From an uncultured Clostridium sp. (lineage in GTDB: Bacteria > Bacillota > Clostridia > TANB77 > CAG-508): a stretch of DNA of 64,000 nucleotides. Position numbers and translations under genes: made by a program. Where the stretch lies: contig CAKNJL010000003.1 in the NCBI GenBank assembly GCA_930982035.1, positions 858-64,857 of the forward strand, given 5' to 3'. Positions 21,448 to 23,850 of the stretch are shown piece by piece (within the stretch, counting starts at the first letter, position 1; the number at the start of each line of letters is the position of its first letter). The notes beneath the pieces were generated by a model. It saw nothing but the letters and a program-made list of their open reading frames with translations. It ran no database searches and had not been told where the DNA came from.

Positions 21448-21517
21448 CTTATTTTATCATCATGTCTTTTCACTTTCAACATAAATTAAAAAAATTGCAA
21501 ACTTTTACATCTGCAAT
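21448..21517 (-). promoter_or_regulatory. sigma-A-type promoter TTGAAA-17-TAAAAT with upstream dyad TTGCAGATGTAAAAGTTTGCAA (copy 1 of a duplicated promoter)
   Basis: minus strand ttgcagatgtaaaagtttgcaa...ttgaaagtgaaaagacatgatgataaaat; near-identical copy at 22641..22709. Confidence 0.55.
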
Positions 21518-21560
21518 TATTTTTTATAAAGAAATAGTTACTTCTATTTTTGACTTGATG

Positions 21561-21764
21561 CAATAAGCTACCCCCTTCATCTGGTGTACCATGACCTGCA
21601 TCTAACACAACTACTTTTCCTGAAACAGGTAATGATGTCACTTGAACTGCATCTCCTATTTCTCTTTTGGGGTTAATCGTATTATTTGGTGCTAAGTATA
21701 CACTAAAACTAATAATAAATGCAAAAAATATAATAAAAACTCTTTTTACAGCAAATTTTTTCAT
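21561..21764 (-). pseudogene. 5' portion of the interrupted CwlD-like amidase gene (signal peptide + VVLDAGHGTPDEGG)
   Basis: MKKFAVKRVFIIFFAFIISFSVYLA signal peptide then Amidase_3 start motif; reading frame runs into element DNA after the junction. Confidence 0.75.
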
Positions 21765-21830
21765 ACCATATCTCCTAAAGTTTTTATTATATTTATATGT
21801 ATTGTTTATATTTTTATTCCGTATCTATTG
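21765..21830 (-). promoter_or_regulatory. promoter/RBS region of the amidase gene (TATAAT about 25 nt upstream of start), copy 1 of duplicated segment
   Basis: minus strand aaatataataaaaactttaggagatatggtatg; segment 21748..21830 repeated at 23700..23782. Confidence 0.5.
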
Positions 21831-21840
21831 CCTTTCTTTT

Positions 21841-22614
21841 TTATATTTCTGCCATTAATTTTGCTTTATAATCATCATAGTTTCCTAAATATGTTGTTAC
21901 TTTTCCATCTTTAAATTCAATAGTTTTATCAGCAAATTTGTTAATAAAATATCTATCATGACTAACAAATAGTAATGTTCCATCAAAATCTTCAATCGCT
22001 TCTTCAAGAATTTCTTTAGTTGGTATGTCTATGTGGTTTGTAGGTTCATCTAATAAAATTAAATCTGGTTTAATCAATAATGCCTTTGCAAGTTGAATAA
22101 GCGTTTTTTCTCCTCCACTTAAGTCGTTATAACTTTGATTTAGTAAATTTTTATCTATATTAAGACCTTCAACTACCATATTGATATTTGTTTCCATGTC
22201 ATATCCACCAGCTATAGAAAACTCTTCTACTAATCTACAGTATTTTTCAAGAACCTTATTATATTCTTCTCCTTCTATTCCAGATTCCATTTTTTCCTGT
22301 AATCTAGCTATTTGCTGTTCTTTTTCTCTTAAATCAGTAAAGGCATCTTTTAATATATCATATACATGTCTGTCATCTACAACACTTGAACCTGTTTGAT
22401 CTAAATATGCTACTTTTGCATTTTTCTTTATGCTTACTTGTCCATTATCTGCTTTTTCTAATCCTGCTATTATCTTTAGTAATGTAGATTTACCACAACC
22501 ATTAGGTCCAACAATAGATATAGATTCTCCTTCATTAAGTGAAAAAGAAACATCTTCAAAAAGTTGCCCATATCCGAAATTAGCTCCTACTTTGTTTACA
22601 TCTAATATAATCAT
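21841..22614 (-). CDS. ABC-F family ATPase, N-terminal ABC domain only (C-terminally truncated)
   Basis: Walker A GPNGCGKST, signature LSGGE, Walker B LILLDEPTNHID, arm-like insertion, ends at GNYDDYKAKL where ABC-F linker normally begins; likely start ATG 22614 with RBS aggtgag. Confidence 0.6.
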   Translation of the reverse strand: MIILDVNKVGANFGYGQLFEDVSFSLNEGESISIVGPNGCGKSTLLKIIAGLEKADNGQVSIKKNAKVAYLDQTGSSVVDDRHVYDILKDAFTDLREKEQQIARLQEKMESGIEGEEYNKVLEKYCRLVEEFSIAGGYDMETNINMVVEGLNIDKNLLNQSYNDLSGGEKTLIQLAKALLIKPDLILLDEPTNHIDIPTKEILEEAIEDFDGTLLFVSHDRYFINKFADKTIEFKDGKVTTYLGNYDDYKAKLMAEI

Positions 22615-22640
22615 TTTTCTCACCTAAGACTTGTTTTTTT

Positions 22641-22709
22641 CTTATTTTATCATCATGTCTTTTTACTTTCAACAAAAATCAAAAAAATTGCAAACTTTTA
22701 CATCTGCAA
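22641..22709 (-). promoter_or_regulatory. copy 2 of the TTGCA-dyad + sigma-A promoter
   Basis: ttattttatcatcatgtctttttactttcaacaaaaatcaaaaaaattgcaaacttttacatctgcaat nearly identical to 21448..21517. Confidence 0.5.
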
Positions 22710-22718
22710 TTTATTAAT

Positions 22719-23156
22719 CTATTTTTTTGTTCCATATTCATTAAGATATTTATTTACTAATTCAATCAATTCTCTCGCTGTATCAATTTGTATTTTTGTT
22801 TCTTCATCAGTTGGAATGAATTCATCATCATAATCACTATCTTCTCTAACTTTACTAGCTTGGCTTATCTTTTTACTTATAATCTTAGGAAATTTTTCTG
22901 TTTTTATATAATGTTGATTAAAATAAGCAAGTACATCTTTATGTCTTTTAAAATCTACTCTTTCTAATGCTAGTACAGCCTTTATGGCATGAAAAATAGA
23001 ATAATATGCTCTGTTATTTGCATTTAAATATCTTTTATGTTTATAACTAAACTCTGCATCAGATAAATCTTGTTTTGCTCGTTCTAGTCTATATTTTGCA
23101 AATCCACTTACTGTAATATTTTTATCCATGTAAAACCACTCCTTCTTTTTGTACAT
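22719..23156 (-). CDS. HEPN-domain protein (toxin of a HEPN/MNT pair)
   Basis: 145 aa with R(x4-6)H-like motif VREDSDYDDE, immediately downstream of and overlapping the nucleotidyltransferase gene. Confidence 0.55.
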   Translation of the reverse strand: MYKKKEWFYMDKNITVSGFAKYRLERAKQDLSDAEFSYKHKRYLNANNRAYYSIFHAIKAVLALERVDFKRHKDVLAYFNQHYIKTEKFPKIISKKISQASKVREDSDYDDEFIPTDEETKIQIDTARELIELVNKYLNEYGTKK

Positions 23157-23463
23157 TCATATAAAAAGGAATTACATTTATCCTATTATTATATTTTTCA
23201 ATATTTCTAACAATAGGAGAAATTATAATGTCATTTTCTAATTCTAAATCACAAGCTAATTCACGTATTTTCATTCTATATTTTGCAAGTTCTTCGTCAT
23301 TAAAATCTGTTAATATCATTATATCAATATCAGAATTTTTTCCATAATCTCCCCTTGCATAAGAACCATATAATATTACTTTTTTTAGCCTGTCTCCAAT
23401 TAAATTTGATACTTGTGATATAAATTGCTTTAAGACTTTATCAATTTTATTTGGCATAATCAT
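23122..23463 (-). CDS. minimal nucleotidyltransferase (MNT) of HEPN/MNT toxin-antitoxin pair
   Basis: GSYARGDYGKNSDIDIMIL = GS...DxD polymerase-beta-like NTase motif. Confidence 0.65.
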   Translation of the reverse strand: MIMPNKIDKVLKQFISQVSNLIGDRLKKVILYGSYARGDYGKNSDIDIMILTDFNDEELAKYRMKIRELACDLELENDIIISPIVRNIEKYNNRINVIPFYMNVQKEGVVLHG

Positions 23464-23699
23464 TACTCCTTTCTTGTTTAGTCTGCTAATATCTTCTTAG
23501 TTTCTTCATATGCTTCTTCTACAGAACATACTTTTCCATTATTAGTATCTTCTATGCCCTTTCTTAATTTATCCAATAAATCTTTATTATCTTTTATAAT
23601 TAAACTATCAAGTGCTTGGTTTGTCATAATAATTTATTTCCTTTGCTATTCATATTATTATTATATCATATTTTTATTTAAAATTGCTATATATTTTTA

Positions 23700-23782
23700 T
23701 AGCAAATTTTTTCATATCATATCTCCTAAAGTTTTTATTATATTTATATGTATTGTTTATATTTTTATTCTGCACATTTTTA
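23700..23782 (-). repeat. second copy of the amidase promoter + first 7 codons (MKKFAIK then diverges to stop)
   Basis: catatctcctaaagtttttattatatttatatgtattgtttatatttttattc identical to 21765..21817 region; lies ~250 bp upstream of MNT gene. Confidence 0.6.
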
Positions 23783-23784
23783 AA

Positions 23785-23850
23785 ATGTCCAAACGGAAAC
23801 GTCCCCAATGGACAAAATGTCCAAAACAGAAACGTCCCCAATTGGACATT
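23785..23850. promoter_or_regulatory. two tandem ~30-bp repeats each containing dyad TGTCCA..TGGACA and GGGGACG core; operator-like
   Basis: tgtccaaacggaaacgtccccaatggaca / tgtccaaaacagaaacgtccccaattggaca. Confidence 0.35.

Follow-up and report, generated by a model that had tools for sequence, protein, structure and literature searches.

Duplicated promoter segments at cwlD in an uncultured gut Clostridium as probable boundary scars of stacked mobilizable elements

Two promoter-bearing segments, named D1 and D2, each occur twice next to a 16.3-kb integrative mobilizable element (IME) that interrupts cwlD, the gene of a spore-cortex N-acetylmuramoyl-L-alanine amidase, in a 64,000-nucleotide stretch of DNA from an uncultured Clostridium sp. 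(contig CAKNJL010000003.1, positions 858 to 64,857 of the forward strand), hereafter called the window. The duplicated promoters are probably boundary scars of related mobilizable elements that repeatedly inserted, and partly decayed, at this one cwlD site, and the duplications would be by-products rather than regulatory devices. Evidence for this is provided by the repeats themselves, the att sites, empty sites and intermediate arrangements in contigs of the same species, two sequence classes of the cwlD 5' copy, and a strong hairpin beside the cwlD promoter, all of which can be read directly from the contigs.

Reality and geometry of the duplicated segments

All genes of the region are on the minus strand. 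In minus-strand reading order they comprise EssC, a YukD-like gene, the strong hairpin, the first D1 copy (D1b), orf49, genes of the MNT and HEPN types, the first D2 copy (D2b), a 257-aa ABC-F derivative (ABC-F'), the second D1 copy (D1a) with a cwlD 5' fragment, the second D2 copy (D2a), and genes encoding a NUDIX protein, a phosphoesterase and an amidotransferase, followed by the mobility genes. Gene labels rest on Pfam and NCBIfam profile matches, and the order agrees with that given in a preliminary description of this DNA. The segments concerned are as follows.

23782 to 23852, minus strand: hairpin formed by two repeats of about 32 nt, between the YukD-like gene and D1b (-38.5 kcal/mol, z -6.8)
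23694 to 23770, minus strand: D1b, predicted native cwlD promoter with ribosome-binding site (RBS) and 7 initial codons, the remainder lost in a 254-bp deletion
22635 to 22711, minus strand: D2b, predicted hybrid terminator-promoter cassette (dyad hairpin 22688-22709, -35 22667-22672, -10 22644-22649)
21743 to 21819, minus strand: D1a, promoter, RBS and start of the apparently imported ("travelling") cwlD 5' copy, beginning 22 nt past the ABC-F' stop
21576 to 21764, minus strand: coding fragment of the travelling cwlD 5' copy, first 61 codons, extending to the crossover core
21442 to 21518, minus strand: D2a, predicted terminator-promoter cassette (dyad hairpin 21495-21516, -35 21474-21479, -10 21451-21456), at the left end of the element upstream of the NUDIX-phosphoesterase-amidotransferase genes

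In a repeat scan, both D1 and D2 were found as 77-nt direct repeats, the D1 copies being identical at 75/77 positions (97%) with a spacing of 1951 and the D2 copies at 73/77 positions (95%) with a spacing of 1193. The two duplicated promoter segments of the preliminary description are thus present, while its coordinates were 5-11 nt off; its D1 range overshot the true upstream boundary by about 11 nt, 21820-21830 and 23771-23782 being unrelated. The peptides MKKFAVK at D1a and MKKFAIK at D1b were correctly read, but the D1b frame does not stop at once and continues for six further codons (MKKFAIKIYSNFK). The TTGAAA-17-TAAAAT promoter was present in both D2 copies as described, with an upstream TG. 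When sub-patterns of D1, the dyad and the promoter core were searched for with 3 mismatches allowed, every one was present exactly twice in the window (<0.01 expected by chance).

The possibility, raised in the preliminary description, that the repeats arose in assembly or represent a generic motif found genome-wide has a negligible probability. Short metagenome contigs often end near these repeats, as would suit an artefact, and several such contigs (L047-L051) terminate within or just after D1a, attL or D2a, where the repeats appear to break short-read assemblies. However, the identical arrangement recurred in at least ten independent metagenome assemblies from different samples (L001, L010, L043-L051), and an assembly artefact is therefore excluded. 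With respect to a generic motif, an exact 22-mer search located the D2 dyad in 32 species-representative genomes and 14 further metagenome contigs (46 loci), with one locus per genome; the window contains only two copies in 64 kb, and every locus with enough flank was at cwlD (28/28 among the 32 genomes).

The resident element and its att sites

The following features define the element and the interrupted gene.

5243 to 21575, minus strand: predicted IME of 16.3 kb, with an HTH_36/DnaD-like gene, MobC/NikA, a MobA/VirD2-type relaxase, further cargo and two large serine recombinases
6844 to 8409 and 5308 to 6825, minus strand: the large serine recombinase genes, both with Resolvase, Recombinase and Zn_ribbon_recom domains
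21576 to 21583, minus strand: attL core CAGATGAA, from the attL/attR/attB comparison
5235 to 5242, minus strand: attR core CAGATGAA, from the same comparison
21519 to 21575 (about 57 nt), minus strand: P' arm of the element att site, 88-97% conserved in relatives
19445 to 21425, minus strand: cargo operon with NUDIX (true start 21425), calcineurin-like phosphoesterase (Metallophos) and class-I glutamine amidotransferase/peptidase C26 (GATase)
4691 to 5239, minus strand: cwlD 3' part (Amidase_3, Pfam)

The core CAGATGAA was common to attL, attR and the empty attB of the sister contigs L003, L004 and L008. When the two window halves of cwlD were rejoined with one extra C removed, the protein scored 222.1 bits on TIGR02883 (spore_cwlD), a marginal pass of the cut-off of 221.55; an intact homologue from another species (L030) also passed marginally, with 225.5 bits. 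The shared core and the rejoined protein together argue that the 16.3-kb segment is an IME inserted in cwlD. The element carries its own recombinases, which are 33% identical to each other, and its attL and attR are defined, the corresponding attB being empty in relatives. Pfam also detected a relaxase (PF03432) and MobC/NikA, while no VirB4- or VirD4-like open reading frame (ORF) was seen among the large ORFs of the element, not every ORF having been scanned. In an exact look-up, the distal recombinase was found only in integrated copies at cwlD with the same flanks, and a window-type chromosome without the IME, in which ABC-F' and D1a would be followed by uninterrupted cwlD, was not among 23 contigs.

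In an Erysipelotrichaceae metagenome-assembled genome (L036, 300-600), a recombinase stop is followed by 37 nt, the core, the P' arm and the dyad, an attP-type junction that would represent either a circular form or a head-to-tail tandem. In L005 (14025-14300), a diverged cwlD copy (77-81% identical) is broken at the CAGATGAA(C) core by a different element whose arm is unrelated, and therefore more than one element family uses the site.

The empty site of this species does not encode an intact CwlD. An extra C immediately after the recombination core (GATGAA-C-GGAGCA) causes a +1 frameshift in the empty sites of L003 (~14587), L004 (~9474) and L008 (~10538) and in the window attR (5234), leaving ORFs of 67 aa and 185 aa, whereas in most other species attB reads GATGAAGGAGCA and cwlD is in frame. 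The same +1 shift at the same spot was observed in three other species (L016, L017, L039). This recurrence points either to a scar that forms repeatedly where crossover takes place or to an allele that has spread.

Two classes of cwlD 5' copy

The 23782-23852 hairpin is contiguous with D1 in L004 and L008, the alleles whose site is empty, marking the native upstream border of the cwlD promoter. The repeat unit of this hairpin occurs nowhere else in the window. D1b abuts the hairpin in the same way and is predicted to be the original cwlD promoter of the host, not moved from its place; at the D1b position, the full D1-cwlD5'-attL-P' sequence is retained in L003 and L006.

The comparison used 244-nt D1-cwlD5' copies, which fall into two classes. 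The native copies, which adjoin the hairpin, were 100% identical among L003, L004 and L006, and the native copy of L008 was 93% identical to them. The travelling copies, which lie downstream of ABC-F and include the window D1a, shared 95.5-100% identity among themselves but only 89-91% with the native class. With about 10% divergence from the native class, the second copy was therefore not made from the host's own gene in this lineage, and D1a appears to have been imported with a travelling unit. Homology was observed between the 22-nt spacer behind the ABC-F stop and the region downstream of ABC-F in the IMEs of L035 and L041, where ABC-F is the last cargo gene; this homology fits an illegitimate join of the ABC-F end onto D1. 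The simplest reading of the array positions, on which it depends entirely, is that the unit moves as the outer part of composite elements by the normal att reaction.

A simple in-situ tandem duplication of the host segment from D1 to D2, with no second element, would account for the interleaved order D1b-D2b-D1a-D2a. It was rejected as extremely improbable because the spacings are unequal (1951 vs 1193) and the cwlD 5' copy that goes with D1a differs by 10% from the native copy of the species. In addition, the genes in between make up the cargo end of the element family, with the P' arm ahead of them in L003 and L006.

The preliminary description suggested that the host amidase promoter had been captured to drive cargo. 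This is not supported: D1b is still beside the YukD-like gene and the hairpin. D1b as a captured promoter for MNT-HEPN was also rejected: it is in the ancestral position and lies near orf49-MNT-HEPN only because of the 254-bp deletion, and orf49 has its own conserved extended -10 TGATATAAT (a TGnTATAAT promoter, 23660-23668), so capture of the amidase promoter to drive MNT-HEPN is neither needed nor backed by evidence. The captured copy would be D1a, which is predicted to drive only the cwlD 5' stub. A GAATAAA-N13-CATATAAAT pattern, together with CATA-rich motifs upstream of cwlD in other species, is an unverified hint that a sporulation sigma factor recognizes D1.

The remnant between D1b and D1a

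The 1.95 kb between D1b and D1a contain an antitoxin remnant, an MNT-HEPN pair, D2b and an ABC-F gene with an internal in-frame deletion, and are interpreted as the decayed cargo end of an earlier related element.

23478 to 23627, minus strand: orf49, C-terminal half of an antitoxin of 84 aa that is usually paired with a RelE/StbE toxin
23122 to 23463, minus strand: MNT nucleotidyltransferase, antitoxin-type (Pfam NTP_transf_2 7.6e-13; PADLOC PDC-S09 5.8e-27; weak MntA match)
22719 to 23156, minus strand: HEPN protein (Pfam HEPN 6.5e-22), gene overlapping the MNT gene by 35 nt
21841 to 22614, minus strand: ABC-F', 257 aa, in-frame fusion of ABC1 (residues 1-188) and ABC2 (residues 478-546)

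Identity to orf49 was 74-81% in relatives. The adjacent, overlapping MNT and HEPN genes are a predicted toxin-antitoxin (TA) pair, with GSxxRG (GSYARG)...SDID in MNT and R-x5-H (RVDFKRH) in HEPN. ABC-F' had been described as C-terminally truncated, but it has instead an internal deletion between the two ATPase domains, which removed residues 189-477 of a 546-aa protein; the join is within the Walker-B stretch GATGAACCTACAAACCA common to both domains. The full-length relative in L003 scored 451 bits on NF000355 (ribosomal-protection-like ABC-F; cut-off 380), and the window ABC-F' no longer has the arrangement of two ABC domains connected by a linker that characterizes such proteins. GATGAAC, present at the deletion junction, resembles the att core; a recombinase-mediated deletion was considered and rejected, the likeness being judged a coincidence of the DEPT Walker-B codons. 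An Rfam scan of 21000-24300 returned no RNA family, even at E<=1.

Sister contigs and intermediate arrangements

An exact look-up of the YukD-like protein yielded ten same-species contigs from different metagenomes, which were mapped to the window by blastn. The arrangements observed are listed below.

L004 and L008: empty site, hairpin-D1-cwlD
L003: hairpin-D1-cwlD5'-attL-P' arm-orf49-MNT-HEPN-D2-phosphoesterase-amidotransferase-D2'-ABC-F (546 aa)-22 nt-D1-cwlD-GNAT, with no 16-kb element
L006: the L003 arrangement with a window-type IME inserted in its second cwlD
L009: of the deletions, only that of 254 bp behind the first D1
L005: hybrid D2b before full-length ABC-F
L002, L007 and L052: window-like decayed unit, followed by a full unit and next by a minimal IME with its P' arm directly against the HTH_36 gene
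L001, L010 and L043-L051: the window arrangement itself

The second cwlD of L003 is uninterrupted by any element, yet it is frameshifted at the core. The position of the unit in the arrays varies, being first in L003 and L006 and second in L002, and its start is always the P' arm.

Compared with L006, the window has three deletions. The first, deletion (a), removed 254 bp comprising the remaining part of the first cwlD 5' fragment together with the attL and P' arm that belong to it, with an A-rich microhomology of at most 7 nt at 23700-23694. In deletion (b), the phosphoesterase and amidotransferase genes were lost between the D2 after HEPN and the related D2' before ABC-F, leaving the hybrid D2b. 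Deletion (c) is the in-frame ABC1/ABC2 fusion in ABC-F.

These contigs bear out the earlier suggestion of serial insertion and decay, with the remnant of a second element at the same att site: the remnant is undecayed in L003 and L006 and partly decayed in L009 and L005. It was found without the 16-kb element in L003, and both were missing in L004 and L008. The proposal of serial insertions holds insofar as a remnant of a related element is present; two independent insertions would be too simple an account, as the second cwlD 5' copy seems to have been imported inside composite elements.

The D2 cassette

The TTGCA dyad of D2 folds into a stem-loop of 10 bp with 6 nt in the loop, and U7 comes next (-9.3 to -11 kcal/mol, z -3.3). 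The adjoining TTGAAA-17-TAAAAT sequences with their upstream TG match the consensus at 10/12 positions in both copies and are the best two promoter-like matches in 21300-24000; their hexamers and 17-nt spacing fit the sigma-70 type (for which spacers are 16-18 nt), and they are predicted promoters. The dyad was observed 10-12 nt after the stops of the HEPN gene, a RelE-like toxin gene and a response regulator-GGDEF (RR-GGDEF) gene, and is placed either directly after the P' arm or upstream of a cwlD uninterrupted by an element. In L003 and L009, a hairpin of different sequence with U7 occupies the same place before the same promoter core in the D2' cassette ahead of ABC-F. Three natural dyad variants all keep or improve pairing, one of them by G-U only. 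Several related species have the gene order RR-GGDEF, dyad, NUDIX-like, cwlD, and the dyad there follows an orthologue of the window GGDEF gene (30042-30965).

We infer promoter and terminator activity from these features, and D2 is accordingly described here as a putative portable cassette at module junctions, consisting of a terminator-like hairpin and a sigma-A-type promoter, which probably insulates cargo from read-through and supplies a constitutive promoter. Its confinement to cwlD suggests a locus-specific seam of a mobile gene pool and not a generic motif.

The dyad (TTGCA-N12-TGCAA) could alternatively be a protein-binding operator that co-regulates cargo operons, with the D2 duplication a selected regulatory duplication. 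As DNA it is a near-perfect palindrome, located immediately ahead of the -35 and brought closer to perfection by two natural variants, and its sequence is identical in 46 loci, although this identity is biased by the exact-match search. However, the dyad often has no promoter and stands straight after stop codons and before unrelated sequence, a hairpin of other sequence with a U-run can substitute for it before the same promoter, one variant retains G-U pairing only, and no candidate regulator co-occurs consistently. An operator is considered unlikely, and the dyad is better read as a terminator hairpin.

The dyad 30-mer could also be a target of site-specific recombination, for instance by one or other of the serine recombinases, with D2a and D2b as cassette borders in an integron-like shuffling of cargo. 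The same 30-mer joins at least five upstream and at least four downstream contexts with sharp homology breaks, contains CAGATG as the att core does and resembles the outer P arm, and the element has two recombinases of 33% identity. Nevertheless, no two alleles were found between which a segment bounded by dyads had been precisely lost or gained, the crossover in the single resolved event (D2b) was in the promoter part and not in the dyad, the att similarity is short and AT-rich, and paired recombinases can share one site, as CcrA and CcrB do. The probability of a recombination site is judged to be quite low, and the terminator-promoter cassette is retained as the preferred reading of D2.

Proposed history of the locus

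We infer the following order and mechanism of events, including the excision of composite elements. Within a clade of uncultured gut Clostridia of low GC content, an IME family with two large serine recombinases would target the core CAGATGAA in cwlD. These elements appear modular at their left end, which comprises, in order, a P' arm of about 57 nt, often a TA pair, the D2 cassette, and cargo (NUDIX, phosphoesterase, amidotransferase and ABC-F). In an ancestor, the cargo end of one element may have parted from its mobility genes and gained a second cwlD promoter with 61 codons (D1-cwlD5') behind it, the likely founding route being a tandem duplication mediated by microhomology, after which the inner element was precisely excised. 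The resulting unit [P'-TA-D2-cargo-ABC-F-D1-cwlD5'] would then have travelled as the outer part of composites, excised through the outer attL and attR.

In the window lineage, the unit would have come to lie between the host promoter (D1b) and the resident 16.3-kb IME, whose attL was made with the travelling cwlD 5' copy (D1a). Deletion (a) would have locked the remnant in place by removing the outer attL and P' arm, deletion (b) would be a recombination between two D2-type cassettes that removed the phosphoesterase and amidotransferase genes and produced the hybrid D2b, and deletion (c) would have fused ABC1 and ABC2 in frame.

Several observations weigh against this history. The 77 nt of D1b are 96.1% identical to the native copy and 97.4% identical to D1a, too short a sequence for a confident native assignment. 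At the junction of ABC-F and D1, the similarity that bears on its origin is short and AT-rich. The dyad hairpin has only 2 G-C pairs and was not called by a simple consensus terminator scan, and the exact conservation of the dyad is partly an artefact of the exact-match search. Furthermore, no attP junction (P arm, core and P' arm) of the window element was present in the metagenome contigs searched, and no excised circular junction of either the element or a composite was found.

A more far-reaching extension, considered rather unlikely, is that the travelling cwlD promoter and 5' fragment with its conserved terminator-promoter cassette is a self-renewing landing pad, or gene-deposition platform. 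Composites would integrate via the outer P' arm and the inner element would leave via the inner attL, so that cwlD is rebuilt from an imported 5' half and a host 3' half and promoter-equipped cargo is fixed upstream. If true, this would be an integron-like loading of genes beside a sporulation gene across species by serine-recombinase elements, with the dyad possibly a second recombination site.

Comparison with known systems

Accretion of ICEs (integrative and conjugative elements) and IMEs in tandem with decayed cis-mobilizable elements (CIMEs) is known, for example from ICESt1/ICESt3 of Streptococcus thermophilus (PMC5704250). As in those arrays, in which whole-composite transfer is possible (PMC5704250), elements are stacked at one site and a decayed element without recombination or transfer genes (orf49-MNT-HEPN-ABC-F') adjoins an intact one, here upstream of the IME. 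The known cases involve tyrosine integrases at gene ends with a short att repeat, whereas large serine recombinases act here inside an ORF, and the repeated unit consists of 244 nt of promoter and 5' coding sequence ending in attL, with a right border of the remnant that is not attR. The decayed element is not flanked by attL and attR: the outer attL of the window has been deleted, and the unit of L003 is flanked by attL and attB.

Staphylococcal cassette chromosome (SCC) islands of the SCCmec/pseudo-SCC type at rlmH (CcrA/CcrB) likewise have two adjacent large serine recombinase genes, stacked elements and remnants without recombinases, and their cargo is often resistance or defence genes. 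In contrast to SCC, the window recombinases scored 109-113 bits on the CcrB model, far below the cut-off of 900, which places them outside the Ccr type; the target is cwlD and not rlmH, a relaxase and MobC are present, and the repeats are not short integration-site sequences. The remnant without attL and attR on its two sides differs from both the accretion arrays and SCC.

Sporulation-gene intervening elements, such as skin in sigK and SPbeta in spsM with SprA (PMC5499854), resemble the present case in that a large-serine-recombinase element interrupts a sporulation ORF. The window element is mobilizable, and is not a phage or a phage remnant; in contrast to skin and SPbeta, no excision factor was identified in it. 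In this species rejoined cwlD is +1 frameshifted at the core, and therefore developmental reconstitution would not restore the gene. Tn4451/Tn4453 with TnpX (PMC5704250) are also clostridial mobilizable elements that integrate and excise via a large serine recombinase, but they have one recombinase of low target specificity, whereas the window element has two recombinases and a single specific target. No paper linking cwlD with serine recombinases or intervening elements was found. The case is a tidy example of a known process and not a new kind of system.

Additional features of the window

The further cargo of the element includes a 718-aa fusion of a CntK_N-like (histidine racemase-type) and a HisRS-like part (11167-13323), a VanX/VanY-like D-Ala-D-Ala dipeptidase (10447-11145) and an LD-carboxypeptidase (15237-16232), an unusual peptidoglycan/amino-acid set. 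A 264-aa ORF on the opposite strand within the element (13657-14451, plus strand) looks like a truncated transposase or integrase-core protein. A chromosomal NUDIX paralogue (665-1231; L032 1456-1983) is 45% identical to the element NUDIX. In addition, a segment of about 855 nt is duplicated at about 98% identity (33249-34103 and 38517-39371) in or near large surface-protein genes (CLIPPER/SpaA-like), which appears as double blast hits of L001.

Implications

The arrangement at cwlD indicates that elements integrating inside a gene via serine recombinases can still stack and leave cargo behind, a behaviour mostly documented for tyrosine-integrase elements at gene ends. In uncultured Clostridia of a widespread human-gut clade, the cwlD gene would be a hotspot for elements of this kind, and short terminator-promoter cassettes may act as seams of cargo rearrangement. 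For annotation, the case is a warning that duplicated "promoters" at such a locus are probably recombination scars and not regulatory innovations.

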